From: an uncultured Oscillospiraceae bacterium
GTDB taxonomy: Bacteria; Bacillota; Clostridia; Oscillospirales; Acutalibacteraceae
Assembly (NCBI GenBank): GCA_958354085.1
Contig: CATWUX010000001.1
Span: 1 to 39,323, forward strand
DNA: 39,323 nt
Direction of reading: 5' to 3'
The number at the start of each line of letters is the position of its first letter. The first letter of the stretch is position 1. A program made the position numbers and the translations under genes. The notes beneath the pieces are model-generated. The model saw only the letters and a list, made by a program, of their open reading frames with translations. It did no database searches and was not told where the DNA came from. Below, one piece after another: positions 19,820-38,327 of the stretch.

Positions 19820-20272
19820 TTAGATGCATACCTTGAAAATTGCCTTTTTCAAAAGTGCGGGCTGTTCTACACAGCAGTTCGGATTATGAGCGTCGGAGGG
19901 ATACAGAATATAAAAATCCCCTGCGCCAAAACAAACCGTTTGACTGTTTGCGCCTTCCGCATAAAGACAAAAATCCTCTTTTTCATTATAAGGCTCGGTA
20001 ACATTCAGACCATCTATCGCCTCGTACTGCATACACTCCCTGCCGCTCAAAATATAGTGGACATCGATATGCTGTCGATGAGCTTCAAAAGCGCCCTTCT
20101 CCTTTGGATGGGTCATCATCTCTACCACTTTCAGTACCACACGAGAACCATCCAACTGTTTCTCCCCTACCGGTGCCTGTTCGTCCAAGGATTTCATAGC
20201 CTCCACAACGCTGGCTGGCAGAAAACGGTCGTGTTTCTCTTCATACAACTGCTTGATATTGCCGGCTACCAT
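19820..20272 (-). CDS. YhcH/YjgK/YiaL (DUF386) family protein (sialic-acid-operon-associated cupin; NanQ-like)
   Basis: 150 aa. HRQHIDVHYILSGRECMQ...GAGDFYILYPSDAHNPNC...LKKAIFKV parallels E. coli YhcH (HEQYIDIQLLLNGEE...PGMFAVFMPGEPHKPGC...IKKVVVKV). Confidence 0.8.
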   Translation of the reverse strand: MVAGNIKQLYEEKHDRFLPASVVEAMKSLDEQAPVGEKQLDGSRVVLKVVEMMTHPKEKGAFEAHRQHIDVHYILSGRECMQYEAIDGLNVTEPYNEKEDFCLYAEGANSQTVCFGAGDFYILYPSDAHNPNCCVEQPALLKKAIFKVCI

Positions 20273-20311
20273 ACATGTTTTCCTTCCTGTTATGGGATAA
20301 CGGAAAAAGCA

Positions 20312-21421
20312 TCAAAATCTCCACTGCGTTTCCGCTTTGTCAATTAACCGTTTGGCATCTTCCATGTCCATTTTGGGGAAATTAAAAAATATGCCTTCCG
20401 GTCCTACCGCTTTGACGATCTGATCCGCATGATAAATTGCTTCCTCCAACTCATACATTTTCAGACCGATCCACAATCCCTTCCCATGCTCTTTGACCGT
20501 TTTATAGAGCGGGAACCATTTTTCGCTGCCGGTCTGGTCGTTGCCAAAGCCCGGCGTCCACTGCAAAGCGTCCAGCTTATCCAGCTTCATAATGGCGTCC
20601 ACATGAACCAGACAATCCGGTCCATCCAAATGGTAGAGGGTGTTTTTGATTTCGTCGCACTGCCGCGCCAAAGACGGCAGAATATATTCCTCGTACTGAG
20701 AGGGAGACAGCAGTGCTGAACAGTCGCACTGGAGTTTGGCGGTCTTTCCGGTTCCCAAAATATTAAACGCCGTATAACTGCAGCAGTCCCGCTCCGTCTT
20801 GACGATGTTATAGATCGGATCGTAATACTGCATATACGTATCCTCGATATTTTTCAACGCCAAACGAAGCTCGTCCGGATAATCGTAAAAATCGAAGCAG
20901 CAGGTTTGGGAATCCCGCATAGAACATAAAATATCAATATTCTCGACAATATCCGGGATACACACCATCAGATCGCTGTTTTTTGCCAGCTCTACCTGCC
21001 GCCGAAGAATTTCCTGATGCCGCACCCACCAGATATTGTCCGGATCATAATGCAGCGGAAGCGCCTGTGTATAGTCCTCGATACAAGGCTGAAACCAGAT
21101 GGTATCCGGTGCAAATTTCGGACTCGCCCCCAGATAAAGCGCCATGGAGCCCGCGCCCAAATTCATGGAAAACTGCGGAAAAGCCTCCGCAACCGGTTCA
21201 TAAGCGTTATACTCATTCATGATCCGGGCATAATTCTTTTCCACATTCAGATAGGAATCGGCATCGTCGTCGAAAGGCTCCACCGTATATTCTTCAAACA
21301 ACGGTTTTTCCCGTTTAGCTAAAATATTGAGTAAAGGTCTGCCGGTATTTTTGTGCTGAAACCAGTCATCAAACCGTTCAATGGTTTCGTCCCAGTTTTT
21401 TTTGAATTGAATCTGTGCCAT
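20312..21421 (-). CDS. uncharacterised cytoplasmic protein (possibly URO-D-like TIM barrel; function unknown)
   Basis: The ORF extends to 21472. ATG 21421 (MAQIQFKKNWDETIERFDDWF) follows GAGGGAG at 7 nt and lies 22 nt after the upstream stop. It has no signal peptide. The YHLDGPDCLVHVDAIMKLDKLDALQWTPG block is reminiscent of URO-D/MtaA-like proteins, but I cannot confirm this by eye. Confidence 0.55.
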   Translation of the reverse strand: MAQIQFKKNWDETIERFDDWFQHKNTGRPLLNILAKREKPLFEEYTVEPFDDDADSYLNVEKNYARIMNEYNAYEPVAEAFPQFSMNLGAGSMALYLGASPKFAPDTIWFQPCIEDYTQALPLHYDPDNIWWVRHQEILRRQVELAKNSDLMVCIPDIVENIDILCSMRDSQTCCFDFYDYPDELRLALKNIEDTYMQYYDPIYNIVKTERDCCSYTAFNILGTGKTAKLQCDCSALLSPSQYEEYILPSLARQCDEIKNTLYHLDGPDCLVHVDAIMKLDKLDALQWTPGFGNDQTGSEKWFPLYKTVKEHGKGLWIGLKMYELEEAIYHADQIVKAVGPEGIFFNFPKMDMEDAKRLIDKAETQWRF

Positions 21422-21443
21422 GCTGATTCTCCCTCTTACCTTG

Positions 21444-23687
21444 TCAAAGCAATCCTGCTTTTTCACGTTCAATGACCACGCACCTGGCCCGCTGCTGATT
21501 GTGATAGGCTTTTTCCACCCGCTCGCTTTTGCCGTAACCGATGTACAAGGTATCCTTCAACGCCAAAATGGATGGATCCAAAATCTGATTCACGTCATAA
21601 GACCAGTCATGAGCCTCGCTGTTGATTTTATCTACGGTCAGCCGTTCCCGCCACTCCAAGCCATCCGTACTTTCCAGCAGCACCAAATGCGTTCGCGGAA
21701 AAAGGCTGCCTTTGGCATAGGGATGGTTCTTGACATACACAAGGAAATAGCGTCCTGCCTGCCGCGGATCCTCCGCAATGCCAAAGGAGGACATGGCGCA
21801 GGGAAACTGCGGCATCGTATAAAAGCCCGTAAACGTCTCACCGTTATCAAACGAGTCCGTATAGCAAATACAGCCGAAAGAATTGCGGGTATAAAACATC
21901 CGCAGCCGCCCATCGCTGCAGCGGATCACCTTGGATTCTGCCCAAGAGGAATTCGGAGCGGATTCAAAATGGGGGTATATGTTTCTGGTATCGCCGCGCG
22001 AGGGACACCACTCTCGCCCGCCATCGTCGCTGTAGTATACCTTTGTATAATGCCCCATGATGCGGCCGTCCACATACCGGCGTACCACCAGAGGCATGAA
22101 CAAGCGGGTGTGCCCGTTCTTCATGGCAATCTCCGTCATGGAAGAAACGTGAAACAACACCAGCAGCCGCCCTTCCTCATCGTACAGACCGTCCTCCGAG
22201 AGAATGCGTCCGATTGTATTCCACTGCTTCATGTCCGGGGAAAACTCGACCGAGGTATCTGCCAAAACCTGCAGATACCCTCCCGCAGCTAAGCGGTGAA
22301 CGGTACTGTATCCCCCTGTCCGATTCACTCCGGCATAAGCACCGGAAGTATCCCGCGTAAACCACAAGCCCCGGTTGTCCGAGAGATACACCCGCCGGTC
22401 GGATACGCCTAAAACGGTACCGTCAGGCAACTCCTCAAACTCCATATAATGCGAATACTCGTCCGGAATCACGCAGAGCTCCCGCACGCCGTCCGGTATC
22501 GGCCGGCCGGATGGCAGAGCACAAGTGAGTTTCTGAAGAGCGATCGGACAGCCGTCGCTGAATAGACCTATCCGCCCGCATCCGAGCTGAGTCGATTGCG
22601 AAAAATGCACCAATTGCGTGTGATTGATCTCCAAAGTAACCGAATCTCGCTGCGCCTGTAAATGTATAGCAAGCCAGGTATCCGTCGGAAGCGTGGTTCC
22701 CGATAATACCCAGTTTCGTTCCGAAGGAAAATCGACCCCTTTGGCGGCGTCTATAAAAAAGGCGCCTTTTTCAAAGGAGTAACCGATTTTTACACCGCTG
22801 TTTTCATGCGCATACCGAATCAGGAAGCCGCCCTCGCCCATGTTGGAATGGGGAGAGAACTTGACGCTGGCATACAAATCAACCGTTTCTTCAAAGCAGT
22901 GGAGCGTAGCCGCCGTATAGGTTTCGGCACGCAGGATGCCGAAAGCGCCCGTCTCTGTGACGCCCCATTCTGCTTTTTGACGGTCAAACTGCCAGTAACG
23001 CGGCCCATCCGGCCCTCTGAAATCCTCACAGGAAAAACTGGCCGGCGTTATGACCTCCGGCGCCGCTTTTGACGGCTCCATCGGAATGCCCCAAACTTCA
23101 AAATTTGCAAAGCTGTTGTCGCCCGATGCGATACGGAACCCGGCGGTGCCGCGGGAAAAACGATACAGAGGATCGGCATCCTCCCAGTCGAATACAGGGA
23201 TACCATCCACCTGGGCGTGCAAATGAAATGTCTCGCTGTACAGCGTAATAGAATGCCAGCTTCCCGGACGACTATCCAGCCCCAGAGCGGTCAGATTGAC
23301 GGGCGGGCACACCGGGTCGTAAAAAGAAGCGCTGGCATAGCTGCTTTTGGACAATTCCGCGTATAATGCGGGAGTGTCCTCGGATTCTGTCCGAAGATAA
23401 TAGAGCCGAAGCAGATACCCGCCCTCATAGCTCCAACAAGTTACAATGCCGCTGGAGGAAAGCGGCGAATCCAACCGGATCCGGCTGGATACCCGCCGGA
23501 TTTCGCCGATTCCCTCCTTACGGTACATCAAATTCGCTGCGGTACGCAGGGAAGGATCGTTTTTGACCCGCCAGTAACGGCACACGCCGTCCCGCCGTTC
23601 CCATCGTCCGAAGCCGGCGCCCACCTGCGTGGTCCACCCCGGCTCTTGACGCGAAAAATCATCCTGAAACAAAAGCGAACCTTCCAT
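21444..23687 (-). CDS. cytoplasmic protein: 2 x DUF1080/LamG-like jelly-roll + C-terminal BNR/Asp-box beta-propeller
   Basis: 747 aa with AGGAGG 7 nt upstream and no signal peptide. Jelly-roll ends: GTAGFRIASGDNSFANFEVWG and GRIGLFSDGCPIALQKL. Propeller: YLSDNRGLW, YYSDDGGREW, SFDNGETF, ESTDGLEW, plus the sialidase-like E-x-K-V-I-x-CSDGRLRMFYTRN strand. Confidence 0.85.
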   Translation of the reverse strand: MEGSLLFQDDFSRQEPGWTTQVGAGFGRWERRDGVCRYWRVKNDPSLRTAANLMYRKEGIGEIRRVSSRIRLDSPLSSSGIVTCWSYEGGYLLRLYYLRTESEDTPALYAELSKSSYASASFYDPVCPPVNLTALGLDSRPGSWHSITLYSETFHLHAQVDGIPVFDWEDADPLYRFSRGTAGFRIASGDNSFANFEVWGIPMEPSKAAPEVITPASFSCEDFRGPDGPRYWQFDRQKAEWGVTETGAFGILRAETYTAATLHCFEETVDLYASVKFSPHSNMGEGGFLIRYAHENSGVKIGYSFEKGAFFIDAAKGVDFPSERNWVLSGTTLPTDTWLAIHLQAQRDSVTLEINHTQLVHFSQSTQLGCGRIGLFSDGCPIALQKLTCALPSGRPIPDGVRELCVIPDEYSHYMEFEELPDGTVLGVSDRRVYLSDNRGLWFTRDTSGAYAGVNRTGGYSTVHRLAAGGYLQVLADTSVEFSPDMKQWNTIGRILSEDGLYDEEGRLLVLFHVSSMTEIAMKNGHTRLFMPLVVRRYVDGRIMGHYTKVYYSDDGGREWCPSRGDTRNIYPHFESAPNSSWAESKVIRCSDGRLRMFYTRNSFGCICYTDSFDNGETFTGFYTMPQFPCAMSSFGIAEDPRQAGRYFLVYVKNHPYAKGSLFPRTHLVLLESTDGLEWRERLTVDKINSEAHDWSYDVNQILDPSILALKDTLYIGYGKSERVEKAYHNQQRARCVVIEREKAGLL

Positions 23688-23704
23688 CGGCGTACCTCCT
23701 GAAA

Positions 23705-25843
23705 TTAAGCTTCCGGCAGCTCTTCCTTTTTCACAAGCAGAAGATGGCCGGCAACAGCCGCCAAGCTGATGGCTGCCAAAAGCAGCGGCAGGGCGATCGG
23801 TGAAACAGAACCGGTATCTACGTTATGCATGGTGGTCGTGGTGCCGGTTTGCTCGCCGCCGGCAGTCGTAGTAGAAGAGCCGCTGGGTTCTGTCGGAGTA
23901 GTGGGCGCTCCGCCGCCCAGTTTCTTCACCTCGATATTGCTGCAATACGAGGTGTAACCGTTGACACGGAAACCGATACTGCCGGTCGGACAAGAATCCG
24001 CAGAAGCGGTGATCACTTCTTTGCCGTCCAGATAGCAGGTGATGTTGCTGCCCTCCACGGTCATGGACATGTGATAGGCTTTGTTCGGCTCCAGATCCAT
24101 ATCCACCTGGGCCAGCGCTTTCTTTGCCTTCCGATCATACAAACGGACATATTTTTTGCCGTTGGTCTGGAAGCAGATACCGTACTCATACCCATTGGAA
24201 AGGCCGGTAGTCCGCGCTACCAGACAAAGCATATAGGTGGAAAAATTACCGGTCACCTGATCGGATATGAATACATCCGCGTCTACCGTATAATCCGTCA
24301 GCGATGTGTACGCCGGCTTGCCGTTCAGATAGCAACCGGTAATTTCGCTGGTCATCTTCAGCTGACCATCCACGATCTCCGGCAGATCTGAACTCCAGCC
24401 GCGGTCGGTAAGGGCGTTTTCAGCGGTGAAATATTCCTTGAAATAATAGCCTTCACCAAAGTCCGTTTCGTTGCCGTCATCCACTTTTGTGTAAGGGAAC
24501 ACCACCACATTATCATAGCCCACCAGCACGCCGCCGGTGCGCAGACCGACGCTACCTTTACGAGTAGCGTCATCCGCCACCTCGATGAGCAGACTGCCAT
24601 CCACCGAGCAGCGAATCGTCTCACCGGTGTGAGCAATCTTCAATCGGTAAATGTTCCCCGCCTGCACGGCAAAATCCTGTCGTTTCAGCTCTGTCTTCGT
24701 ATTGCGGTCATATAAGCGCACATAGGTATCGCCCGCTTGCGTAATACATAAGGAAAACTCGTAGCCATCGTCCTTACCGCTGGTCTTGGTAACGATTCCG
24801 GCGGTATTGGTTGCCAGCGAACCCGCAAACTGAGCGGAAATGGAAACATCCGCTTCCAGAATATACTGATTCCAATCGGCGGCACCTGTCAACTGATTGA
24901 GGTAAAGCATCTGCTTGCCCTCGTCAGTACTGGAGGTTTCAAAAAAGGCGTGCCCGTCTTTCAGCAGCGGGGAGTTGCTGTTCCAGCCTTTTTCGGTCAG
25001 CGTTTTGTCGCCGGAAAAGCTCTCGGAGAACAGAGCATTGTCCGGTATCTCTTTTTCCGAAGGCTGGAACCAGCTGTAGTCAGGCTCCGCGGGCTTGGAT
25101 GGCTCCGTGGGATCCGTCTCCGTGGTGGTGGGCTCCGTCTTTACCACCACGTTATCAAAATAGGTCTTATTCTTACCGACGGTCAGACCGATGCTTCCCT
25201 TGGGATGCGCGTTGTCTGCGTCGATAACCTCCATCACCAGTGCGTCATCAATGTAGCATTTAAAATGGTTGCCAATCGCCTCCACCTTCACGCGATAGGT
25301 TCTGCCCAACTCAATCGGAAAAGACGGCGCGTCCACGCCATTTACGTCCTTCAGATTTTTTTTGGCAACCATATTCCGAAAACGCAGCGTAGTTTTGGAA
25401 AGATCCTTTGAGACGGACAGACCAAACTCATACCCTTTGTTTCTGCCGGACGAACGAATCGCCACGGCCGATACGTTGGTGGCCTGCAACAAATTCGATT
25501 TATCGGCATCAAAGGTCAGATCGGTTTCCACCGTATAATCGGTCCAATTTTTGGCGTCTGCGTTGCCGGACAGATGCATCGTTATCTGGCCGGGAGGAGT
25601 CGAATCCGTTCTGAACAACACCAAGCGTCCGTTGTCAAAGCTCAGAGGGCCGGTGGTCTGATACCATACCCAGCCCTTTTCCTTCAGCGCTTCCTCACTT
25701 TGATCGGAAAAGTCCTCGCTGAAGGCGACCTCGGTGTGATCCGCGTCCACGGAGAAAATGGAAAGGCTGGTGATGAGGAGTAAAAACGCCATGCACAGCG
25801 CAAGCCAGCCTAGTCCGTATCTTTTTTCACTGTTGATTCGCAT
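23705..25843 (-). CDS. secreted anchored protein with three tandem DUF1080/LamG-like jelly-roll domains (NVDTG sorting-signal-like C-terminus)
   Basis: GTG 25852 and ATG 25843 are both possible starts; the ATG lies 9 nt after GGAAAGG. The signal sequence is GLGWLALCMAFLLLITSLSIFSVDA. Three domain ends are visible: GSIGLTVGKNKTYFDNVVVK, GSVGLRTGGVLVGYDNVVVF and GSIGFRVNGYTSYCSNIEVK. The C-terminus is NVDTG + hydrophobic helix + KKEE. Confidence 0.85.
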   Translation of the reverse strand: MRINSEKRYGLGWLALCMAFLLLITSLSIFSVDADHTEVAFSEDFSDQSEEALKEKGWVWYQTTGPLSFDNGRLVLFRTDSTPPGQITMHLSGNADAKNWTDYTVETDLTFDADKSNLLQATNVSAVAIRSSGRNKGYEFGLSVSKDLSKTTLRFRNMVAKKNLKDVNGVDAPSFPIELGRTYRVKVEAIGNHFKCYIDDALVMEVIDADNAHPKGSIGLTVGKNKTYFDNVVVKTEPTTTETDPTEPSKPAEPDYSWFQPSEKEIPDNALFSESFSGDKTLTEKGWNSNSPLLKDGHAFFETSSTDEGKQMLYLNQLTGAADWNQYILEADVSISAQFAGSLATNTAGIVTKTSGKDDGYEFSLCITQAGDTYVRLYDRNTKTELKRQDFAVQAGNIYRLKIAHTGETIRCSVDGSLLIEVADDATRKGSVGLRTGGVLVGYDNVVVFPYTKVDDGNETDFGEGYYFKEYFTAENALTDRGWSSDLPEIVDGQLKMTSEITGCYLNGKPAYTSLTDYTVDADVFISDQVTGNFSTYMLCLVARTTGLSNGYEYGICFQTNGKKYVRLYDRKAKKALAQVDMDLEPNKAYHMSMTVEGSNITCYLDGKEVITASADSCPTGSIGFRVNGYTSYCSNIEVKKLGGGAPTTPTEPSGSSTTTAGGEQTGTTTTMHNVDTGSVSPIALPLLLAAISLAAVAGHLLLVKKEELPEA

Positions 25844-25866
25844 GAATGTCACCCTTTCCGATATCC

Positions 25867-26736: not shown

Positions 26737-26871
26737 GAATAACCCTCTTTTTTGCATTTAAGTTTCGCGGCCGCGTGAACAGCCGCCTTTTCCGTGGATA
26801 CCGCGCCCGGCGCGGATAGACCGGCGACGGGCGCAGTATTCATTAACGATTTTTGCTGTGGTCAACCATTG

Positions 26872-29800: not shown

Positions 29801-32541
29801 ACCGACTCGGCCAGACTGTTGACCTCATACGGAGACAGAGAATCAAACAATTGCTTCAGCTCTTGTACCGTCTGCCGATCCGATTCAGACAAAGCAGCGG
29901 GATTGATCGCCTGCACTTTGGAAGCGAAAGCATCCAGATAGTCCTGACGGGACACCACCGTCACCGTAAAAGTCGTGGTGTGATCCTGATAGGAAGCGGT
30001 CACCTTATGTTGTCCCAGCACGGTGCTATCGAAATCCGACAGCATTTGCGACGTGACCTTCACAATCTCGTTGGTGCCATCGTCATAATTGATCTTCAGG
30101 GACAAATCCTCCGGCTCCAATACAAAACCCTGATACAGAGTCGTCGCGTTGTTGGCGCTTTGTACTTCCATGGAGGCGATGCTCTTCTTATGCAGGGGGG
30201 TAACCAGGTAATTGTCAATCAGTGCGCTGGTGTTGACAACCTTTAAGCCGCTGGCACCTTTCACCTGCGCAAACTCGCTGTCGTCAATGAATGTGCTGAC
30301 CAGTGCGTCGTTGAAATATACCTGAATCTCATTGCCGATGATAGCCAGCTTGATATTATACCAGACGCTGGTTGTCAGGCCCTCTTTCAAACCGGCTTTG
30401 GTTTGAAGCAAGGAGGCCGTATATTGCTCCAGACGTTCCGATCCGTTTTTGGAGAAACGATACAGCTCGCCTTTCATGGAACCGCGAGTCAAGTTCAGAC
30501 GGAACTCATAATAATAGGAATTGGTTTTTCGAGAGATAACGCCGATATATTCGCTGCTGGATTCCACATTCTTATCAAAACATACATCGGCAGAGACCGC
30601 GTAGTCGGTCCACTCCTCGCCGCCGTTAATATTGATAACATAGGAATAGGAAGAAACCGAACCCTGCGGTCGGTTGAAATCCACCTTCAGCATGCCTTTG
30701 CTCACTTTGTTGGTGAACTGCGCCGAGGCCGGGAAAGACCACAGACTGTTGGCGCTTTTATCAAAGGTATCTTTAAACAAATAAGCTGAAATAGTAAAAT
30801 CGAACGTGGTTGTCGCTTTTCCATAGGTGATCGTAATCGTCTGCTTTTTGGTAGACGTGGGGTTATAACCGGAGAGCATATTCTCCGTCACACCCATCAC
30901 ACCGATGGAATTGTCGGTGTAGTGCAGCAACAACGCAAAATTGGACACATCCAACGCTTTGGCTTCCAAACTGGTTACCGGTTCCAGTTTTGCGTTGACC
31001 AACGAAATTTTATCGATTGCGTCCGGGGACTTCTTTTCCGCGGTTACTACCTTGAAATCGTCAAATTCGCAGGAGCCGTTGATAGCGCGCAAACCCACAT
31101 AAGGGGTGGTTTCCGCCGTACTGAAATCGGAGGTTACAATGGCCAATTTATCGTTGACATAGCACAGTACGCCCTCGTCCAGCACAGTAACCTTTAATGT
31201 ATAGAACTTGTCCTTGCTGAAGGTGATGCCCAGATCACTCAACAGCGCGGAGCCCAAAAGAGTGGTATGACGGTACAGCAGCAGATTGCCGCTGGTGGTC
31301 AAACGCAGATTATACACCGCCGCACTGCCGCTGCCGGTGGCAAACTGCAAACCCGCCGCACCTTCACGCGCGGTGGCTGTGGTGGAATTACCCTTGGCGC
31401 GTACTTTGACCTGAACCGTATAGTTGTCCCAGTCGGCCGAGTCCGCGGTATTTACAAAAGCCTCCGCCGTAAGCGGTGAATTAAAGGCGCCTACATTGGG
31501 AAAGTCCACGACCATTTTGCCGTTTTCCGCTTTGAAAGCGTAGCTGAAACCGAATTCCGCGTTGTTGACCTCTTTGTATGTCCAGGCAGGCCGTCCATTG
31601 TCAAAGGATTCCTCCGCCAGCACGGTTTCCGGCAGGGACTTGACCACATTCACCTGGAACTGGGTAGTCTTTCCGCCATAAGAAACTGTAATGGTTTTGG
31701 TACCCACCGATCCATCCAGTCCCTTGAAGGTAACACCGGAAGTGGTCGAGGGAATGGTTTCGTTGCCGTACACCCCGTTATAAAACACTTTCAAATCGAA
31801 GCTCAGCAGGCCGGTAACCGAGATCTGCTCCGGAATGTTGATTGCCTCGATGCTTTCCACTACCCGATCCTCGATCTTGAGAATCTTGAAATTCTGAAAA
31901 GCGGCTTTGGTATACAGGGTACGTACGCCGGCAAAACCGCTCTCGTAGGATTTGTCGGTAACTTCGGTCACCAGCACATCGTTCAGATAGCACTGGATCT
32001 TTTCGCCTACGACCAGCATACGCAGTTCGTAGGTCTCGCCCTCTACAATCTTACCGTCCTTTGTGCCGGGAATATTGGTACTGGTCTGATACAGCACCTT
32101 ACCGGAGGATTTTTCCCCACGGCGATAAAGCCGGACAAAAGTGGTGCCGGAGGAGGTGATGCCGAGTCCGAATTCATAGCCTTCGGTCATAGACGCATTG
32201 GCTCTGGCGACGATTGCCGCGGTACCGGTCTGCACGTCGCCGTTTACGTCGGTGCCGCGTTTAATGGACAGAGAGCCGGACACCGCATAGTCTTTGTTTT
32301 CCGAGAGGCCGTTTACATAGTTTTTATCGCTGCCGGACAGCGAGTAGACGCCTCCGGCCACTTTGCCAACATTTGTATCTTGCCATTGTCCGGACAACCC
32401 GCTGGCGAATTCATCGGAAAACAATATCAAGGAATCTGCCTTTCCCAGTACAAAGCCAAAGCCGCTGAAAAGCGTGCAAACCAGGGCCAATACCGCAAAA
32501 GAGGATAGGATTCTCCTGGAAATATTTTTCATTTTATCCAC
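26872..32541 (-). CDS. 1889-aa multidomain surface protein: signal peptide, 5 DUF1080/LamG-like modules, 4 Ig-like modules, BNR/Asp-box propeller, InlB-B-like repeat, C-terminal TM anchor
   Basis: A single uninterrupted ORF with GTG at 32541 and an in-frame ATG at 32532. Jelly-roll ends: GFAGVRTLYTKAAFQNFKI, YVGLRAINGSCEFDDFKV, GASGLKVVNTSALIDNYLV, GGFGLRNSEANGKFDNFKV and GRIGVYSDNADFYVDDIKA. Ig-like (Big_3-like) ends: TITVSYGGKTTQFQVNVV, TITITYGKATTTFDFTI, KVTASYQDHTTTFTVTVV and TITLYHPNGFRLSYDIDIV. Asp-boxes: LSKDKGQTW, YYSDDYGKTW, SFDDGKTW, KSTDGKNW. The tail is WIILGVLAGVIVAAGAVITVILIRKKKK. Confidence 0.9.
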   Translation of the reverse strand: MDKMKNISRRILSSFAVLALVCTLFSGFGFVLGKADSLILFSDEFASGLSGQWQDTNVGKVAGGVYSLSGSDKNYVNGLSENKDYAVSGSLSIKRGTDVNGDVQTGTAAIVARANASMTEGYEFGLGITSSGTTFVRLYRRGEKSSGKVLYQTSTNIPGTKDGKIVEGETYELRMLVVGEKIQCYLNDVLVTEVTDKSYESGFAGVRTLYTKAAFQNFKILKIEDRVVESIEAINIPEQISVTGLLSFDLKVFYNGVYGNETIPSTTSGVTFKGLDGSVGTKTITVSYGGKTTQFQVNVVKSLPETVLAEESFDNGRPAWTYKEVNNAEFGFSYAFKAENGKMVVDFPNVGAFNSPLTAEAFVNTADSADWDNYTVQVKVRAKGNSTTATAREGAAGLQFATGSGSAAVYNLRLTTSGNLLLYRHTTLLGSALLSDLGITFSKDKFYTLKVTVLDEGVLCYVNDKLAIVTSDFSTAETTPYVGLRAINGSCEFDDFKVVTAEKKSPDAIDKISLVNAKLEPVTSLEAKALDVSNFALLLHYTDNSIGVMGVTENMLSGYNPTSTKKQTITITYGKATTTFDFTISAYLFKDTFDKSANSLWSFPASAQFTNKVSKGMLKVDFNRPQGSVSSYSYVININGGEEWTDYAVSADVCFDKNVESSSEYIGVISRKTNSYYYEFRLNLTRGSMKGELYRFSKNGSERLEQYTASLLQTKAGLKEGLTTSVWYNIKLAIIGNEIQVYFNDALVSTFIDDSEFAQVKGASGLKVVNTSALIDNYLVTPLHKKSIASMEVQSANNATTLYQGFVLEPEDLSLKINYDDGTNEIVKVTSQMLSDFDSTVLGQHKVTASYQDHTTTFTVTVVSRQDYLDAFASKVQAINPAALSESDRQTVQELKQLFDSLSPYEVNSLAESVVTQYEAIWDAWELVQYPELAGYDVLYRDTFNQDLPHRYIHSYENNSGKWLTRNGYYLNDMATYALVGSGWAIPNGYEGNIVSAEADIMMSEEDCYIGFGFNISSYGYYHVRLTNKTKDSDGNMTYTLQLLKKQASGHVTLQSVLPINYDITIQPHEWHNLRMTLLEGILKVYIDDVLLITQDESMSSNQYVSGGFGLRNSEANGKFDNFKVRGTVANVYVPQIEPTVYEDNFDDETAGKNPSHWIETSGKDQWKVYADGDNKVYGVKGVSGYTDSWLHGFEEDPVYAAKFKVTGTRSNAKAGFYIRRSSDTAYVRAGYDFKESKWYLEGTEGVDFDTQRVYADETFALEKNKWYSFEVAASGHSIEVKVDGKVVLSSPDMIDNCGFGRIGVYSDNADFYVDDIKATFKNGGAVTDGVVEVTVFPETYSNYLEIEELPNGNLLGVFAKYQFLSKDKGQTWTNITGQDYKTVCGAGYASILKMDNGMYIQVLYNELYVQVSKDMKNWETIGQVLPTSEQFDDDGNQLALFHVNTMTSAKTAEGNTRLYFPVAFRRYNGASIRGHYTVVYYSDDYGKTWTPSETNTNDVVANYTPTSNVSWSESKVIKCSDGSLRMYYSRNEYGCMQYTESFDDGKTWQGMYPVPELQCAKSSFAVFADPYEKGTYYMVWVNDSPASLNDLQYRTRLSLVKSTDGKNWEFLMDIDRMSPVASLKTGSVHQILDPSLYISKDYIYVSYGRSDEEYGPGAVATHNEQRAQMVRVEKSKLSVKPWNDATLADSNFPKTVEITTLPQVKYGRGDLFSLNGGVLTFTAFNGRTWTQSMIGYPLLKEPNMAEMGKHTITLYHPNGFRLSYDIDIVRGYKVTWNISEGGTVESMVKKLLEGDTKVFTLKPDEGFAVSKVLINGQETAVTDNTFTVSNVNQELTIDVTFDKASGILGGKLGNGTVWIILGVLAGVIVAAGAVITVILIRKKKKTAQ

Positions 32542-32684
32542 CCGTTTTTCTCACTAACTGGAATTTATCCGTTATTTCAATTCAAAAACCGCTTCTGTTT
32601 TCGCCGAAGAAGGCAGGAGCGTGTTTATCGCGCTTATGGCTTGCCAATAAAAGCGCCCCTGCCGCCGCAATCTCCTAATAGGCC

Positions 32685-34331
32685 TTATTTTGTCGCATTC
32701 GCATAAACGTCGTAGCTTCTTTGCAGGATTGCCAGATAATCGTCAATTCCCAGTTTCTTTATGGTGTTGACATAAGCGTCCCACTCTTGGTCGATATCAC
32801 TCTTATTGGTAATCCAATTGGCGCGCTTCGTATCCACCTGATAGAAAATATCCGTGGTCAGTGCATCCATGTCGTAGGCGTCGTCCGGCGCATAATACGG
32901 CCGCGGCCATACTTCCTTATTGATATAATCCTTGTAGATAGCATAGTTGTTCTGCTTAATAGCGTCGTTGCCGCCCAGGATGATCTGATTCTCATAAGCG
33001 CTGACCGGAATGCCGTGCGGAATGTTACCAATGATTTTGGTCAGAACCGGATATTCCTTGTCGATCGCTTTCTGCGTCTCGGAATCCAGTGTGAGGATCT
33101 TATATTTGCCGTCATCGGTTTTTTCCAGACGGCCTTCACCCACAAAACCGTAGTTGCAGGCCAAGGCATTTTCCAGATCATAGAATTTATCCATGAACGC
33201 CATCAGGACATCCACATTTTGGCACAGGTCGGTGACCAGGAACTGATTTTTACTGCCGTTGGTAGCGGGATGATAGTAGAATTTCGGCTCATAGCCTTCC
33301 ACCTTGGGAGGTGCAATGCAGATATAATCCGAGCTGTAAGCCGTGCTGACCGGAGCGGTGTTGGTGAACATACCGACTACGCAGGTTTCGGATTTCAGCT
33401 TGGCATTCAACGTGGTGGAGTTGCCGGTAAAGCATTCATTCCACATAAGGCCCTCGGTATACAGCGTACGGTACCACTTAATAGCCTCTTTATAAGCCGG
33501 ATCGATCGGTACGAATTTCACCTTGCCATCTACGACCTGTACAAAAGCGTCGGTGGTGCTGTCCTTGGTGGCAAGCCCCCACAGCCCTAACAGCGCCTCG
33601 GTGTGCATAAAGCTCTGACCGACGGCACACAGATAGGGAATTTCATCCTGAAGGTTATTGCCGTTGGGATCACGGGTAGCAAACGCACGCAGCACATTCG
33701 TCAGTTCGTCCAACGTCGTGGGAACTGCCAACCCCAAAGTATCCAGCCACTTTTTATTGATCCAAATCGGTGTTTCCAAATAGTGCCCCTGCAAGCCGTT
33801 GTTCTTCGGCAAAGTGTAAATTTTACCGTCGGTTGCCGTAACCATATTGTAAATCTGTGGATTTTCTTCCAGCTGTTTAGTGAAGTTGGGCATAACGGTT
33901 TTATTAAAATACCCGCCGATTTCCTGCAGCTTTTCAGCCTCGATATACTTGGACACGTCCAGATCGGTCAGCCACGGGCCGCCAAACCATACGTCGCCGT
34001 AATTGCTACCGTTGATCATTAACGCCAGCTTTTCAGCAGCTGCTGTACCGGCTCCCAGAAACTCAAACTGGATATTCACGTTGGTTTCGTTTTTGATCTT
34101 TTGCCAAAGCTGATTTTTTTCCAGATCCGATTTAAAGCTCTCCCCTTCTACGCCTCTTACCATGAATTTAAAGGTTACCGGCTCTTCCAGAGGAAATTTG
34201 ACCTCTTTCTCATGCATGACGGTCGACTCGGGAGTCGAGCTGCTGTCTTTGCCGCCGCTACAGGCGGTAAACGACAAAATGGAACATACTGCTAAGGTAC
34301 CTGCCAGCCAAGATCTTAACTTCGTTTTCAT
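32685..34331 (-). CDS. large sugar ABC transporter substrate-binding lipoprotein (LplA-like family 1 SBP)
   Basis: 548 aa with AAAGGAAG upstream and the lipobox ILSFTAC-SGG. Its size and position next to an LplB/LplC-type permease pair are typical. Confidence 0.85.
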   Translation of the reverse strand: MKTKLRSWLAGTLAVCSILSFTACSGGKDSSSTPESTVMHEKEVKFPLEEPVTFKFMVRGVEGESFKSDLEKNQLWQKIKNETNVNIQFEFLGAGTAAAEKLALMINGSNYGDVWFGGPWLTDLDVSKYIEAEKLQEIGGYFNKTVMPNFTKQLEENPQIYNMVTATDGKIYTLPKNNGLQGHYLETPIWINKKWLDTLGLAVPTTLDELTNVLRAFATRDPNGNNLQDEIPYLCAVGQSFMHTEALLGLWGLATKDSTTDAFVQVVDGKVKFVPIDPAYKEAIKWYRTLYTEGLMWNECFTGNSTTLNAKLKSETCVVGMFTNTAPVSTAYSSDYICIAPPKVEGYEPKFYYHPATNGSKNQFLVTDLCQNVDVLMAFMDKFYDLENALACNYGFVGEGRLEKTDDGKYKILTLDSETQKAIDKEYPVLTKIIGNIPHGIPVSAYENQIILGGNDAIKQNNYAIYKDYINKEVWPRPYYAPDDAYDMDALTTDIFYQVDTKRANWITNKSDIDQEWDAYVNTIKKLGIDDYLAILQRSYDVYANATK

Positions 34332-34356
34332 GAAAATCTTCCTTTCATTTCAAATT

Positions 34357-35247
34357 TTATCCTTTAATGGCTCCCACCATTACACCGCGATTGAAATACT
34401 TCTGAATGAATGGGTACAACAGACAGAATGGCAAAGCCGCCACCACAACGACACTGTATTTCAGCAGCTCCTTTTCCCGTTCAAATTCCAAAATCTGATC
34501 CGGCGTCATAGATTCCGACAAAGAAGAGCTCAGCGTCTGCGTCAGTTCTTGTATGATCACCTGCAGACTTTGCTTATTGGGGTCGTCGATATAAATGACA
34601 AAGCGCATATACTCGTTCCACCAGCTCAAAGCGCTGAACAGGAACAGTACCGCGATAGTTGCCTTGCACAGCGGCAAAGCAAACTGAAAGAAATAACGAA
34701 AATCGTTTGCACCGTCGATGGCCGCCGCCTCATACATGGTTTCCGGGAGAGAATCAAACGAGCTGCGCGCCAGAATCATATAATAGACGTTGAGTGACGA
34801 CGGAATAATCATGACCCATATGGTATCGAGCCAGCCGATGGATTGATGGAGCAAATAGGTTGGGACGATACCGCCGGTAAAATACATGGAGACAATGAAC
34901 AAAAAGTTGATAACCTTCCGCCCCTTCAGTTTTGTGCGGGACAAGGCATAGGCGGCCGGCAGAGTAACCGCCAGCGTGGCAAAGCTGCCCGCAAACAGAT
35001 AAAACAGGGAGTTGCGGTATCCAATCCAGATGCGGCTATTATCCAGCAAAGTTTTATAGGCACTGAAATTGATATCCTTTGGCCAGAAGATGACTTCGCC
35101 TCGGGCAATCGCCAACGGATCGCTTACGGAAGCGATAAGGACAAACCAGAGCGGGTATAGAGCAATCAGACTAATCAGGATCAGCAAAACGATGAATACG
35201 ATATCCGTGATTAAATCCACTCGGCTGCGCCGTTTTCTTTTCAGCAT
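34357..35247 (-). CDS. carbohydrate ABC transporter permease (LplC/MalG-like)
   Basis: 296 aa with GGAGGGG 6 nt upstream and the EAA loop YEAAAIDGANDFRYFFQFALPLCKATI. Confidence 0.9.
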   Translation of the reverse strand: MLKRKRRSRVDLITDIVFIVLLILISLIALYPLWFVLIASVSDPLAIARGEVIFWPKDINFSAYKTLLDNSRIWIGYRNSLFYLFAGSFATLAVTLPAAYALSRTKLKGRKVINFLFIVSMYFTGGIVPTYLLHQSIGWLDTIWVMIIPSSLNVYYMILARSSFDSLPETMYEAAAIDGANDFRYFFQFALPLCKATIAVLFLFSALSWWNEYMRFVIYIDDPNKQSLQVIIQELTQTLSSSLSESMTPDQILEFEREKELLKYSVVVVAALPFCLLYPFIQKYFNRGVMVGAIKG

Positions 35248-35262
35248 ATATACCCCTCCTTC

Positions 35263-36207
35263 TTAAAACAGCCCCGTGTCGGTAACCTTTTTGGCAATCC
35301 TATTCGAGATGATTACCAGAATCAAGCCCACCACATTATTGAACAGCGATACCGCCGCCGAAAAGCTGTACTGCTGTCCCTGAAGGCCGCTTTTATAAAC
35401 ATAAGTACCAATGATCTCCGAAACACCCAGATTCAGATCATTCTGCATCAACAATACCTTTTCATATCCCAGCGTGAGCATTTTCCCCATACTGAGGATC
35501 AGCAAAATGACGATCGTGGGTATAATCGTGGGGATATCAATGTGCCAGATACGTTTGATCTTGGAAGCGCCGTCAATAGTGGCAGCCTCAATCAAATCCG
35601 GATCCACCGCGGACAAAGCCGCAATATAGATCACCGCCTCGGAGCCCATGGATGACCAAATACCCGATATAAAATAAGACGGCAGAAAATACTTAGGATC
35701 CCCCTGAAAATAAATAGCTTCCAATCCGAATTTTTCGCGTAGGATATTCAGCAATCCGGTTTCCTGATTGGTGAACAGATTGATGATGCTGACAACAACG
35801 ACCATGGACACCAGATGCGGCAGGTAGGTCGCTGTCTGGCTGAATTTCCGTATTCCCTTAACGGAGCAATTATGTACCAGCAAAGCAAAAATGATCGGCA
35901 AGGGCCAGAGCAGGAAATTCTGAATAAAGGTGATAACCAGCGTGTTTTTCAGGATCGTGGTAAACAAACTGGAATTAAACAACCGCTCAAAATGCTTCAG
36001 TCCTACCCATCGGCCTTCCCAGAGAGCGTCTCCGATACGCAGATCCTTGAACGCAATGGTCAAGCCATACATGGGAATAAAATGAAATATCACCAGACAT
36101 ATCAATCCGGGCAGTAATAAAACATACAGCTGCCAGGACTGGATTACGCTTCGCAGTGTGCCGTTTTTCCGCTTATTCTGCAATGGGCTCTGGATGGTTT
36201 TAGCCAA
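35263..36207 (-). CDS. carbohydrate ABC transporter permease (LplB/MalF-like), TTG start
   Basis: The ORF track extends to 36342 and overlaps the upstream gene. AAGGAGGAG (36215-36223) lies 7 nt before TTG 36207, giving (M)AKTIQSPLQNKRKNGTLRSVIQSWQLYVLLLPGL, a typical LplB N-terminus. The EAA loop is IEAATIDGASKIKRIWHIDIPTI. Confidence 0.85.
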   Translation of the reverse strand: MAKTIQSPLQNKRKNGTLRSVIQSWQLYVLLLPGLICLVIFHFIPMYGLTIAFKDLRIGDALWEGRWVGLKHFERLFNSSLFTTILKNTLVITFIQNFLLWPLPIIFALLVHNCSVKGIRKFSQTATYLPHLVSMVVVVSIINLFTNQETGLLNILREKFGLEAIYFQGDPKYFLPSYFISGIWSSMGSEAVIYIAALSAVDPDLIEAATIDGASKIKRIWHIDIPTIIPTIVILLILSMGKMLTLGYEKVLLMQNDLNLGVSEIIGTYVYKSGLQGQQYSFSAAVSLFNNVVGLILVIISNRIAKKVTDTGLF

Positions 36208-36232
36208 GTTTTTTCTCCTCCTTATCCGGATA

Positions 36233-37681
36233 TTAATCCGGAATGTCCACGATGCCGCCCTTGGCGCGAATTTTTTTCCGCAGCAGCTGCACATCAATAT
36301 TTTTGAACGTTGTCTTCCCTTGAATCGCCATGCCGGCTGCAATCCCCGCCGCCTGACCGATCGCCATACAGGTGGACATGATCCGTACCGGTCCCAACGC
36401 CTGACCGTCAGCGGCGATACAGCGTCCTGCCGCTACAATATTACAGGAATTTTTCGGAATCATGGCGAAATATGGAATACAGGCAATTCGATTCTTAACA
36501 GACAACCCCTTATCCGCGAACGGCTGATGATCACCAAATCCCTCCGTCTGCGACTTCGCACCCCGAGCCAGATCAAAATGCCGCCCGGCCAGAGCAATGG
36601 TATCGGGAAAGCGCTTGCCTTCCAGCATATCCTCGGCCGTCAGCGTATACTCTCCCACGATTCTCCGGGTTTCCCGGACGCCCGGATAGGTAGCAGAAAG
36701 ACGCAAACGGCAATTTTCTGCACCGGGAATGTGTTTTCTGAACACATATTCCACCAAGTGTTTGGCGCGCTGACGGCCCATCAGGGCAATCTGGGTAAGA
36801 TCCTCGGCCGAAGTGCCATCATAACCGTTGTGTGTCGTACCGCCGTTGACCATAAACACTCCATCCTGTACCATGGGGAAAATGATCAGATTACGCGGCA
36901 GGCTCAGTTCCGGATGTTCCTCAATCGCCTTTTGACAGGCATCAAAAAACCACGGATGTCCGCCGGCATTCAGATACTGTTCGATAGCGCCGGCATCAAT
37001 ATTTTCAATGTGAATAACAAAGCTGATGCCCGCCATCTTACCGGTTTCCCGATCTCCTTTATAGGTAGCGTAACCGGCTCGGCTGATCAAATCCGCATCG
37101 CCGGTACAATCGACGACCGCTTTCACCGGGACGAAGGTCATCCCGTCTTTGTTGACAAGATAAACGCCCTTGACCACATTGTCCTCAACGCAAACATCTA
37201 AAGCCTGCGTATAAAATAGAATATCGACTCCTGCTTCGGTAACTACCTCGTCCAATACCCGTTTGCCGATTTCCAGATCAAAGGTAAACTCGTCGTGGCA
37301 GCCTAACCGGCTGAGTCCCGGATACTTGTCCGTCTGCCCCAATTTACAAGGGCCTACCCCACCGCCTTCACGCTTGATGCGATCCACGATTTCATCGAAC
37401 AAACCTGCTACCGCTTCCATCGGATGGGGCAAATTCTCATATTGCAAATTCTGTTCCACCATTTTCAAAAAAGGAATGGAACCCGATGTTTTTCCCAAGC
37501 AAAAAGGGAGTGCGCCCGCGGTCGATACACCGCCGAGCATGCCGGTACTCTCTACCAAAAGCGTTTTCAGCCCTTCTCGGCCAGCAGACACTGCTGCGCC
37601 GATTCCAGCCGGCCCCCCGCCCGCTATCAAAACATCGTATTCTTTCCTTGTGGCGACTTCCTTCGAATAGTGCATCACCAT
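36233..37681 (-). CDS. FAD-dependent oxidoreductase (FAD_oxidored / GIDA-like fold), cytoplasmic
   Basis: The N-terminal dinucleotide fold is YDVLIAGGGPAGIGAAVSAGREGLKTLLVE...GG. GGGAGGA precedes ATG 37681, and ATG 37675 is also possible. No signal peptide. Confidence 0.8.
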   Translation of the reverse strand: MVMHYSKEVATRKEYDVLIAGGGPAGIGAAVSAGREGLKTLLVESTGMLGGVSTAGALPFCLGKTSGSIPFLKMVEQNLQYENLPHPMEAVAGLFDEIVDRIKREGGGVGPCKLGQTDKYPGLSRLGCHDEFTFDLEIGKRVLDEVVTEAGVDILFYTQALDVCVEDNVVKGVYLVNKDGMTFVPVKAVVDCTGDADLISRAGYATYKGDRETGKMAGISFVIHIENIDAGAIEQYLNAGGHPWFFDACQKAIEEHPELSLPRNLIIFPMVQDGVFMVNGGTTHNGYDGTSAEDLTQIALMGRQRAKHLVEYVFRKHIPGAENCRLRLSATYPGVRETRRIVGEYTLTAEDMLEGKRFPDTIALAGRHFDLARGAKSQTEGFGDHQPFADKGLSVKNRIACIPYFAMIPKNSCNIVAAGRCIAADGQALGPVRIMSTCMAIGQAAGIAAGMAIQGKTTFKNIDVQLLRKKIRAKGGIVDIPD

Positions 37682-37730
37682 GGTCCTCCCAGTTCTATTC
37701 AATTTTCATCGGCCGCGATGCCGATAAACC

Positions 37731-38327
37731 TTAATCCATATTTTTGCCGCTCCACAAATGCTGCTTCAATTTTTCCACGGCGCGGTTGCGGTCATCATCC
37801 ATCATATCCTGCAGCAGCTGTACATGAGACTGGCGCCCTTCCGTAGTCAGCATTTGGTTGATACGGAAAAAAAGATTGGGAACCGCTGTGCGAACAAACG
37901 CATTGACTAATTCTTCATACCCGGCGAGCGCTACAAGGGATTTGTGCAGTTCCAAATCCAAAGTCCACATATGCATATTGCCCATCGTTTCTCCGCTGTC
38001 CAGCGCCGTTGCCATTTTGTAAAGCTCGTCATAATGCTTTTGAATATCTTCTTTCGTGTACCGCAAGGCGGCGGCACATTCGATGGCTTCCTTGAGGATC
38101 AGATGACCTTTAATATCCTCTCTGGTAAAGTACCGAACAATGGTGCCCTTCCGATCCATGGTCTTTAAAAAGCCTTCGTGTTCCAACTGCATCATGGCTT
38201 CCATAACCGGCGCCACACTGACATTGCACTCCTTGGCTACCTGCCTTCTGTTAATAATATCCCCAGGCTGCAATTGACCGTCCAGCAATTTAGACAGCAG
38301 AATGTTATAGACATTGGTTGAAAGCAT
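37731..38327 (-). CDS. GntR-family transcriptional regulator (FadR/FCD-type C-terminal domain)
   Basis: ATG 38327 lies 6 nt after GGGGGAG. The winged HTH is PGDIINRRQVAKECNVSVAPVMEAMMQLEHEGFLKT, and the C-terminal half is all-helical. Confidence 0.85.
   Translation of the reverse strand: MLSTNVYNILLSKLLDGQLQPGDIINRRQVAKECNVSVAPVMEAMMQLEHEGFLKTMDRKGTIVRYFTREDIKGHLILKEAIECAAALRYTKEDIQKHYDELYKMATALDSGETMGNMHMWTLDLELHKSLVALAGYEELVNAFVRTAVPNLFFRINQMLTTEGRQSHVQLLQDMMDDDRNRAVEKLKQHLWSGKNMD

Follow-up and report, generated by a model that had tools for sequence, protein, structure and literature searches.

Gene content of a nan-like locus

Contig CATWUX010000001.1 of assembly GCA_958354085.1, from an uncultured Oscillospiraceae bacterium, is 39,323 nucleotides long (the window) and carries a string of genes that resembles the nan clusters of sialic acid utilisation. 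Eleven consecutive open reading frames (ORFs), all on the minus strand, run from position 38327 down to 19820 (refined starts). They encode a GntR/FCD regulator (37731-38327; Pfam GntR 4.7e-13 and, for the FCD-type effector domain, 4e-4), a flavoprotein of the FAD_oxidored family (PF12831; 36233-37681; Pfam 3.3e-88) that carries EYDVLIAGGGPAG, two permeases of an ATP-binding cassette (ABC) importer (both BPD_transp_1 by Pfam; permease 1 at 35263-36207, permease 2 at 34357-35247) and a 548-aa lipoprotein recognised by its PDB matches as the substrate-binding protein (SBP; 32685-34331; no Pfam match). These are followed by a giant protein of 1889 aa with signal sequence, DUF1080/lectin modules, immunoglobulin (Ig)-like domains, propeller and anchor (26872-32541), a DHDPS/NanA aldolase (25867-26739; Pfam DHDPS 9e-83; NCBIfam NF003164), a 715-aa protein (23705-25852; Pfam 3keto-disac_hyd 2.9e-21, in three stretches), a 747-aa propeller protein (21444-23687; Pfam DUF1080 and BNR_2), a 369-aa protein without a Pfam model (20312-21421; originally listed as a 386-aa ORF) and a YhcH/YjgK/YiaL protein (19820-20272; Pfam DUF386 7e-33).

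The ORF calls agree with a preliminary description of this DNA in the number and strand of the genes and in the pattern of spacers, which measure about 15-55 nt except for about 143 nt between the SBP and giant genes and about 132 nt between the giant and NanA genes. Permease 1 starts with TTG at 36207, 25 nt past the stop codon of the flavoprotein gene and behind the ribosome-binding site AAGGAGGAG. The profile hidden Markov model (HMM) searches proposed in the same description returned DUF386, DHDPS and FAD_oxidored at the values given above (7e-33, 9e-83 and 3e-88 when rounded) and BNR_2 in the giant protein above threshold. As it had also stated, nanK, nanE, nagA and nagB families had no Pfam match among the window genes scanned, and neither had the ROK, NanE and GlcNAc_2-epim families.

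A regulator with operators of its own had been placed at the head of the string and a hairpin at its tail, and both were recovered. In the promoter/operator region (38401..38498, minus strand), TGATATATCACTTGA occurs twice without a mismatch, at 38401-38415 and at 38484-38498, both times enclosing the 10-bp palindrome TGATATATCA; the second copy overlaps a promoter-like TTGACA-17-TACTAT at 38487-38459. With up to three mismatches allowed, TGATATATCACTTGA has six matches in the window compared with 0.85 expected, a count that none of 100 shuffles reached. Orthologues of the regulator occur at the head of the syntenic cluster L012 (related loci are numbered with an L; 51% identity) and in L021 (59%). 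The G+C-rich tail hairpin at 19767-19813, common to the genes converging on it, is probably a terminator, with a folding energy of -42.1 kcal/mol (z = -9.1) that was matched by none of 200 shuffles. G+C-rich hairpins of -40.9 and -48 kcal/mol also lie in the two gaps flanking the giant gene (32542-32684 and 26740-26871, minus strand), where they may mark points at which the mRNA is processed or differs in stability.

A predicted NanA-type aldolase and its companions

Against the NCBIfam equivalog model for N-acetylneuraminate lyase (NF003164) the aldolase scored 337.8, passing the cutoff of 281; against TIGR00683 it scored 292, below the cutoff of 382. Its 31 best matches in the PDB were all (N-)acylneuraminate lyases, E. 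coli NanA being found at 1e-71 and DHDPS entries at 1e-40 or weaker. The segments GSTSE, VYSIP, LKYTS, NGHDE and AIGST line up with those of E. coli NanA column for column, and the window protein keeps the Lys of the Schiff base, the Tyr, the GSTxE motif and, for the sialic acid side chain, the Asp-Glu/Ser, the E. coli counterparts of which we take to be Lys165, Tyr137, Asp191/Glu192 and Ser208 (motif GSTGE). All catalytic and N-acetylneuraminic acid (Neu5Ac)-binding residues of E. coli NanA are thus shared, and the TIGR00683 score is the only notable difference. Judged by these residues and profiles, the aldolase is a true NanA-type enzyme; assignment to the 2-keto-3-deoxygluconate (KDG) or DapA type was ruled out by the NF003164 score and by the uniform class of the PDB top matches. 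An exact look-up of the protein sequence returned no record.

The YhcH protein passed TIGR00022 in addition to its DUF386 match and scored 95 against the NanQ equivalog NF040884 (cutoff 160). It is probably, from these family matches, a sialic acid anomerase like NanQ; YhcH is known as an anomerase that feeds NanA (PMC8141875).

The 369-aa protein is cytoplasmic and belongs to a family of about 620 homologues without a Pfam model, some of which are named "trimethylamine corrinoid protein 2" in some sources. Its similarity to URO-D was faint and non-significant (E 0.07), a search for solved relatives found none, and the genomic context of the family (L014) gave no clue to a substrate. Its gene is an accessory, present only in the closest relatives of the cluster. 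We considered whether this protein and a 376-aa protein, both without Pfam matches, are paralogues and rejected the idea. As a separate observation, an iron-siderophore/cobalamin-type ABC system (Peripla_BP_2, FecCD and ABC_tran; 15497-18435, minus strand) adjoins the cluster and is kept beside it in L002; a cobalamin-type system is curious next to a protein whose relatives bear corrinoid- or methyltransferase-like names.

Surface and cytoplasmic proteins and the importer

The giant protein combines an N-terminal signal sequence, several 3keto-disac_hyd (DUF1080)/ConA-like lectin modules, a GH59_C-like lectin module, Ig-like domains (Big_3), a BNR_2 propeller at residues ~1312-1690 (window 27472-28608) and a C-terminal membrane anchor. 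The 747-aa protein corresponds to residues 1067-1677 of the giant protein (34% identity over 615 residues) and consists of two DUF1080 modules and a propeller at residues 385-747 (window 21447-22535); BNR_2 scored 38.8 bits in the giant protein (threshold 31.4) and, just below threshold, 30.7 bits in the 747-aa protein. The latter has no signal peptide, like every listed member of the ~750-aa class. Among the listed ~1900-aa members, most have a signal sequence at the start and most a membrane anchor at the end, a few being truncated at the N-terminus or devoid of an anchor. From these features the 747-aa paralogue is predicted to be cytoplasmic and the giant protein to be anchored at the cell surface.

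The 715-aa protein has a signal sequence, three DUF1080 modules, Pro/Thr-rich linkers, a C-terminal membrane anchor and a weak match to TS_C, the C-terminal lectin domain of trans-sialidases, and is probably glycan-binding by its domain content. The DUF1080 modules would be lectin or carbohydrate-binding modules rather than 3-keto-glycoside enzymes. The preliminary description had listed extra proteins built from such modules; the modules are borne out in the giant, 715-aa and 747-aa proteins, and DUF1080 is lacking from the 369-aa one.

In the PDB, the SBP matched 5g5y, an ABC-transporter substrate-binding protein that we take to be FusA, at 6e-38 and AlgQ1 at 1e-23, with AlgQ2 also matched; AlgQ1 and AlgQ2 are binders of acidic oligosaccharides. 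By these matches the SBP is assigned to the FusA/AlgQ-like class that binds large oligosaccharides. An SBP of the oligosaccharide type together with a cytoplasmic 747-aa paralogue suggests import of an oligosaccharide or derivative followed by intracellular cleavage.

A sialidase-fold family with a reduced catalytic centre

Because a word-indexed homologue search with the 747-aa protein returned only three relatives, an exhaustive HMMER profile search of 1.84 billion representative proteins was used instead. It gave 383 matches with E ≤1e-3, 136 of them below 1e-30, and nearly all were proteins of ~1200-2000 aa or ~750 aa. Scores against the family HMM are bimodal: full-length members reach 336-486 bits, whereas GH33- or GH93-type BNR_2 proteins from the same loci stay at or below 59 and the GH93-like paralogues in the window at 28-40 bits.

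An AlphaFold2 model of the 747-aa propeller (28-sequence alignment; mean predicted local distance difference test score, pLDDT, 91.9) has 23 predicted strands of at least three residues, assigned to six blades, and five conserved Asp-boxes. Its best fold match in the PDB is the GH181 enzyme Amuc_1547 (E 1e-11, template modelling score (TM) ~0.6, 18-19% identity), followed by GH33 sialidases at E 1e-9 to 1e-10; GH93 is not in the top 50. This comparison had been suggested in the preliminary description. At the sequence level, the family profile matched NanI with 1.4e-19 and placed E584 and R601 opposite the Glu and the Arg that occupy chain positions 297 and 313, presumably E539 and R555. The C-terminal third of the propeller found no meaningful match among PDB sequences.

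Aligned by hhalign with canonical FRIP-bearing GH33 proteins from related loci (probability 99.3%), E584 falls on the GH33 Glu, R665 on the third Arg ("ERK" motif) and R601 at most two residues off the second Arg. The FRIP Arg corresponds to C405/V406 (T/V in the giant protein), where nothing is conserved; the blade 1 loop with the acid/base Asp is deleted, with no conserved Asp in its place; the region of the nucleophile Tyr falls on the inner strand of blade 6, which carries the invariant Q-I-L/V-D-P (L703/D704); and the Glu of the GH33 "YE" motif, which stabilises the first Arg, falls on G719. Of the seven catalytic positions canonical for GH33, the propellers therefore lack four. The motif and hhalign checks also bear out the initial impression of propellers with Asp-boxes but without (F/Y)RIP, in which CVIP and TVFP are the look-alikes. 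Across a near subfamily of 61 sequences, which are roughly 25-40% identical, Y460, H513, R528, E584, K586, D640, R665, Q701, D704 and H729 do not vary, and R601 is kept in 95%. The profiles and conservation patterns define the propellers as a small distinct family, homologous to sialidases and failing four defining features of GH33.

In common with GH33 (C. perfringens NanI and NanJ, S. pneumoniae NanA), the propellers have the fold, five Asp-boxes, the Glu on the inner strand of blade 4 and the Arg residues at the second and third positions; they lack the FRIP Arg and the Glu stabilising the first Arg, as well as the nucleophile Tyr and the loop with the acid/base Asp. Tyr-to-Asp mutants of the Micromonospora sialidase become inverting, and an Asp that occupies the Tyr position or adjoins it would fit water-mediated hydrolysis. 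GH181, represented by Akkermansia muciniphila Amuc_1547, is an inverting enzyme in which the Tyr and one of the Arg are missing (PMC10067855). Its structures (PDB 8AXI/8HLS) share with the propellers the six-bladed fold, the absence of the Tyr and the retention of the Glu and two of three Arg, but have a B domain, a Ca-binding insertion and a CBM-like C-terminal domain that the propellers lack, and His-Gln at the Tyr position instead of L703/D704; identity is 18-19%, and the profile match (E 3e-11) covers only ~80 residues. Unlike in GH181, the giant propeller is followed by Ig-like domains, the 747-aa propeller ends at the C-terminus, and both stand in a DUF1080 context with a cytoplasmic paralogue. 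The GH58 endosialidase (K1F endoNF) is likewise an inverting, Tyr-less propeller that relies on a Glu with a Lys close by, on Arg residues and on a His, and uses H350, R549, E581, R596 and R647 (PMC12632334). It acts in endo fashion on a sialic acid polymer, an activity that would account for both the import of an oligosaccharide and the cytoplasmic paralogue in the present cluster. Its trimeric tailspike architecture is absent from the propeller proteins, and GH58 was rejected as the closest fold because the K1E tailspike (E 1.4e-7, TM 0.39) matched more weakly than GH33 and GH181.

Further members were seen elsewhere. A distant subfamily (L017, L018; ERZ28654276/306) has Trp in place of the second Arg and forms tandem arrays of SLH-anchored proteins of 1480-1650 aa, whose context in L017 gave no clue to a substrate. 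In GCA_964620235.1 (L004, L006) the giant gene is followed by four propeller paralogues of 758, 746, 745 and 440 aa, and the two of these that were checked lack a signal peptide. A genome search with a two-sequence propeller alignment found a single locus, in a metagenome-assembled genome (MAG) of uncultured Clostridia.

A flavoprotein linked to NanA-type genes

The FAD_oxidored protein is cytoplasmic, has the FAD-binding motif GGGPAG and was modelled by AlphaFold2 with a pLDDT of 89.9. That the oxidoreductase of the cluster is of the FAD type, as first described, agrees with its Pfam match; no Gfo/Idh/MocA family appeared in its Pfam scan (E up to 0.01). In the PDB it found only generic flavoprotein/Rossmann folds (TM ≤0.43) and no close solved structure, and we dropped the transfer of a function from such matches. 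Literature and structure searches revealed no characterised member of PF12831, and in the literature searched neither a flavoenzyme of sialic acid catabolism nor a system combining such a flavoenzyme with NanA, propellers and DUF1080 proteins is described; a 2023 review of gut sialic acid metabolism does not mention a flavoenzyme. Among 38 relatives of 57-88% identity, LGCHDEF, RETRRI, GRHFDL, GRC and many Arg are invariant, and C128, C192, C421 and C438 are invariant or nearly so. These Cys and Arg could form a carboxylate-binding, metal or Fe-S site.

A metagenome scan with the flavoprotein yielded ~19 distinct loci of at least 53% identity and 56 loci of ~30% identity. In the closer set, NanA-type aldolases are encoded beside or near the flavoprotein in L024, L025, L030/31, L032, L035 and L038, and members of the propeller family in L020, L021, L023, L026, L027 and L032. 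The flavoprotein gene adjoins the NanA-type gene with no other glycan gene visible in L025, L035 and L038, an N-acylglucosamine 2-epimerase (AGE) gene directly follows the aldolase gene in L024, and L032 contains two genes for canonical FRIP (GH33) sialidases. None of the 56 distant loci has a NanA-type aldolase or a member of the propeller family. Since close relatives are linked to NanA or the propellers and distant ones never are, the flavoenzyme is not a chance neighbour, and this context is the strongest evidence that it belongs to sialic acid metabolism.

Conservation of the cluster

The cluster recurs at several levels of relatedness. On the human-gut metagenome contig L019 the flavoprotein is 100% identical and the adjacent regulator and permeases 98-100%, the Logan assembly L002 holds the same cluster at ~99%, and L001 and L003, one of them labelled uncultured Clostridia, are MAG relatives at 70-80%. 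In L012 (GCA_964319405.1) the order is GntR, FAD_oxidored, sulfatase, permease, permease, SBP, a 1989-aa giant and DHDPS, followed by a DUF1080 protein, a 792-aa BNR_2 protein and an esterase. The order in L013 is permease, permease, SBP, an 1887-aa giant, DHDPS, a DUF1080 protein, GH1, DUF624, FAD_oxidored, DUF386 and two AP_endonuc_2 genes, with a GDSL/GxDLY esterase upstream. The core of permease, permease, SBP, giant, NanA and DUF1080 protein plus FAD_oxidored is thus kept in both at 35-72% identity to the window (flavoprotein 57-63%, NanA 51-56%, SBP 52-55%, permease 1 60-64%, permease 2 63-72%). Full-length orthologues of the giant protein, 35-42% identical, occur in L012, L013 and L004, and the aldolases of L012, L013 and the window keep every Neu5Ac-binding residue of E. 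coli NanA.

Additional genes were seen in related clusters. Sulfatase genes lie within clusters containing the flavoprotein, ABC importer and propellers (L012:4791-6131, L021:4413-5762 and L032:4053-5465), and a radical-SAM/Fer4 gene follows the NanA-like gene in L030 (6862-7806); together they hint at sulfated sialoglycans, such as mucin, as substrates. A two-domain FAA_hydrolase of ~621 aa is encoded in L023 (867-2774), L026 (8120-9985) and L027 (8038-9966), confirmed by Pfam in L026, with which the others cluster. It stands directly upstream of FAD_oxidored and beside the propeller family in L026 and L027, and ~5 kb from FAD_oxidored on the opposite strand in L023; a 603-aa FAA_hydrolase occurs near a distant propeller in L005. 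Such an enzyme might replace or complement NanA, for example by hydrolysis of a beta-diketone after oxidation at C4.

Flanking genes

Converging on the string is a gene for a xylose-isomerase-like TIM barrel protein (AP_endonuc_2; 18908..19708, plus strand; Pfam 1.2e-28), whose adjacency to the cluster is kept in L002. The AP_endonuc_2 genes that follow those for the flavoprotein and DUF386 in L013 are not its orthologues, and a proposed orthology was rejected; the convergent gene is possibly a loosely linked accessory of the cluster. The DUF1080 modules, AP_endonuc_2 and the oxidoreductase might together suggest oxidative cleavage by way of 3-keto-glycosides. We do not favour this, because the DUF1080 modules are lectin-like and sit in extracellular multi-module proteins and because the aldolase is of the NanA type. 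Divergent from the promoter region of the GntR gene lies the 5' part of a gene for a choloylglycine hydrolase (CBAH, the bile-salt-hydrolase family; 38632-39323, plus strand; Pfam 2.7e-75), which, together with the identical flavoprotein on the human-gut contig L019, fits a gut origin.

Farther away, three paralogous BNR_2 proteins of 482, 366 and 541 aa, similar to GH93 exo-arabinanases (3a71, 7.5e-49), are encoded at 7502-11676 (minus strand), 8-12 kb from the nan-like string. Two are surface-anchored and one has no signal peptide. With the adjoining stretches 3437-7314 and 11717-15165, which encode a GH2 protein, surface proteins with Laminin_G_3 and DUF1080 and a binding protein, this region looks like a separate cluster for a surface-anchored glycan system built on the same plan of surface proteins plus a cytoplasmic paralogue.

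Proposed pathway and alternatives

Known nan clusters of R. gnavus, S. pneumoniae and E. coli follow the same logic in their gene sets, which combine a sialidase-fold enzyme at the cell surface with an ABC importer, an oxidoreductase, YhcH and NanA (IT-sialidase and NanOx/YjhC: PMC10017367, PMC7315737, PMC8141875). NanOx/YjhC is NAD-dependent and converts 2,7-anhydro- and 2,3-didehydro-Neu5Ac to Neu5Ac (PMC7315737). The oxidoreductase of these clusters is an NAD-dependent member of Gfo/Idh/MocA, whereas that of the window is a PF12831 flavoprotein, possibly a functional analogue of NanOx/YjhC. The window further differs in its Tyr-less propeller, FusA/AlgQ-like SBP and cytoplasmic propeller paralogue and in that nanK and nanE are not adjacent; and whereas the R. 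gnavus scheme imports a monosaccharide derivative, the window cluster points to import of an oligosaccharide and internal cleavage.

From the observed gene content, folds, residue conservation and conserved gene order we infer a pathway, with its substrate, mechanism and order of steps, that would be encoded by co-transcribed genes. On balance we think it probable that the string is a locus for sialoglycan utilisation with two undescribed steps, one performed by a Tyr-less sialidase-fold enzyme and one by a NanA-linked flavoenzyme. The surface-anchored 1889-aa and 715-aa proteins would bind a sialic acid glycan through their ConA-like (DUF1080) modules, and the giant propeller would cut it in a water-mediated (inverting) reaction in the style of GH181 and GH58, or in an eliminative one, rather than by the retaining Tyr mechanism. 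An inverting or eliminative reaction is to be expected because only the Glu and two Arg of the GH33 centre are kept, and by analogy an inverting one is probable. The oligosaccharide-type importer would take up an acidic oligosaccharide or a sialic acid derivative, the cleavage of which the cytoplasmic 747-aa paralogue would complete. FAD_oxidored may then act on a sialic acid-derived intermediate in a step tied to NanA, YhcH would provide the open-chain form, and NanA would split it into pyruvate and an N-acyl-mannosamine, with the GntR/FCD protein as a putative repressor controlling the string from the two operators. The substrate could be Neu5Ac or another nonulosonic acid. Of the original proposal of a sialic acid-type utilisation system with steps outside the canonical nan pathway, the core stands, given the NanA identity, propellers that are neither canonical GH33 nor GH93 and the linkage of the flavoprotein, and all computational tests run were in keeping with it; the oligosaccharide-type SBP and the cytoplasmic 747-aa protein depart from the R. 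gnavus model that had been cited as an example.

Several points weigh against this proposal. Enzyme activity is known for no member of the propeller family or the FAD group. The residues of the propellers were mapped by profile alignments and strand order, not by superposition of coordinates, the Tyr position (L703/D704) being uncertain by about one residue, and the N- and C-terminal thirds of the propellers have no sequence similarity to solved sialidases. Some aldolases encoded next to the flavoprotein are only 29-40% identical to the window NanA and vary at specificity positions (S208 to G in L024, E192 to Q in L032, GNTGE in L035), and the pair of flavoprotein and aldolase could therefore serve a modified or different sugar acid. 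Related loci also vary in context, with genes for sulfatases, GH38, GH127 and FAA_hydrolase. The window has no nanK, nanE or AGE gene that would account for the fate of N-acetylmannosamine (ManNAc). As to co-transcription, hairpins stand in the gaps on both sides of the giant gene, although they exceed shuffled sequence in strength only marginally (z = -1.5 and -2.2).

The diverging aldolases of L024, L032 and L035 lead to a first alternative, in which the same architecture serves another nonulosonic or ulosonic acid, such as KDN, Neu5Gc, a sialic acid bearing O-sulfate or O-acyl groups, or the legionaminic or pseudaminic acid of bacterial surfaces, and in which the flavoprotein and the 369-aa protein would handle the modification. 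The non-canonical catalytic centre, the sulfatases in L012, L021 and L032, the esterases in L012 and L013 and a YhcH score under the NanQ equivalog cutoff would all suit it. We nevertheless consider it rather unlikely, as the aldolases of the window, L012 and L013 keep all Neu5Ac-binding residues, the window one passes the NanA equivalog, and the AGE-type ManNAc/N-acetylglucosamine epimerase of L024 and the FRIP sialidases of L032 are typical of Neu5Ac pathways. An ordinary nan cluster, with divergent exo-sialidases freeing Neu5Ac and a flavoprotein that acts on some other part of the glycan or in redox housekeeping, is unlikely too. The propellers do have significant profile homology to GH33, and PF12831, a family without a known reaction, occurs widely in the glycan loci of numerous phyla (L011, for one, also has GH130, CBM9 and sulfatase). 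Yet four of the seven canonical catalytic positions are lost, a cytoplasmic paralogue and an oligosaccharide-type SBP make little sense if free Neu5Ac is imported, and the FAD group stands beside NanA-type genes even where other glycan genes are lacking (L025, L035, L038), which its distant relatives never do.

Loss of the nucleophile Tyr, the acid/base Asp and one Arg, in proteins dominated by lectin-like modules, could also mean that the propellers are pseudo-enzymes, acting as surface and cytoplasmic lectins while enzymes encoded elsewhere cleave the glycan; the natural, inactive Tyr342His trans-sialidase-like lectin of T. cruzi (PDB 3pjq) is a precedent. This is improbable, because the inner-strand E584, K586, R665, D704, H729, H513 and D640 are invariant in the 61 near-subfamily sequences, a cytoplasmic lectin paralogue has no obvious use, and GH181 and GH58 have activity although their residue set is reduced in the same way. 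That the cluster degrades arabinan with GH93 exo-arabinanases could be thought of in view of the true GH93-like trio in the window (7502-11676), but is most improbable: no GH93 protein, Arb93A and Abnx included, is among the 60 sequence matches listed or the top 50 fold matches of the propeller, the GH93 paralogues score 28-40 bits against the 336-486 of family members, and the adjacent aldolase is of the NanA type. By sequence, fold and family-HMM scores, a GH93 identity was excluded for the giant and 747-aa propellers, and the PDB, HMM and NF003164 results speak against the combination of GH93 propellers with a KDG/DHDPS-type aldolase that had been named as the contrary outcome.

Implications for sialic acid foraging

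Sialic acid foraging shapes gut mucus degradation, colonisation and cross-feeding. To our knowledge, the known routes rely on sialidases of GH33, GH181 or GH156, and their one redox step is that of NanOx/YjhC. The sialoglycan locus proposed here brings two candidates, a sialidase-fold family with a reduced centre and a flavoenzyme group within PF12831, a family whose members recur in glycan loci; this group has genetic ties to NanA across many metagenome loci. The propeller family comprises a few hundred representative clusters, all unannotated, and many of its members are very large surface proteins.

More speculatively, and with doubts that outweigh our confidence, the propellers might be a new family of sialidase-fold hydrolases or lyases and the FAD group a flavin-dependent counterpart of NanOx/YjhC, forming a third branch of sialic acid catabolism that is widespread in gut and fermenter Clostridia. 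The surface propeller would then act on polymers or glycans that contain sialic acid and yield oligomers or a dehydrated or otherwise modified sialic acid, and the FAD enzyme would convert the product to a form that NanA can cleave. If confirmed, the two candidates would provide a new CAZy family and the first function within PF12831, and would reveal users of sialoglycans that are overlooked when metagenomes are screened for GH33 only.

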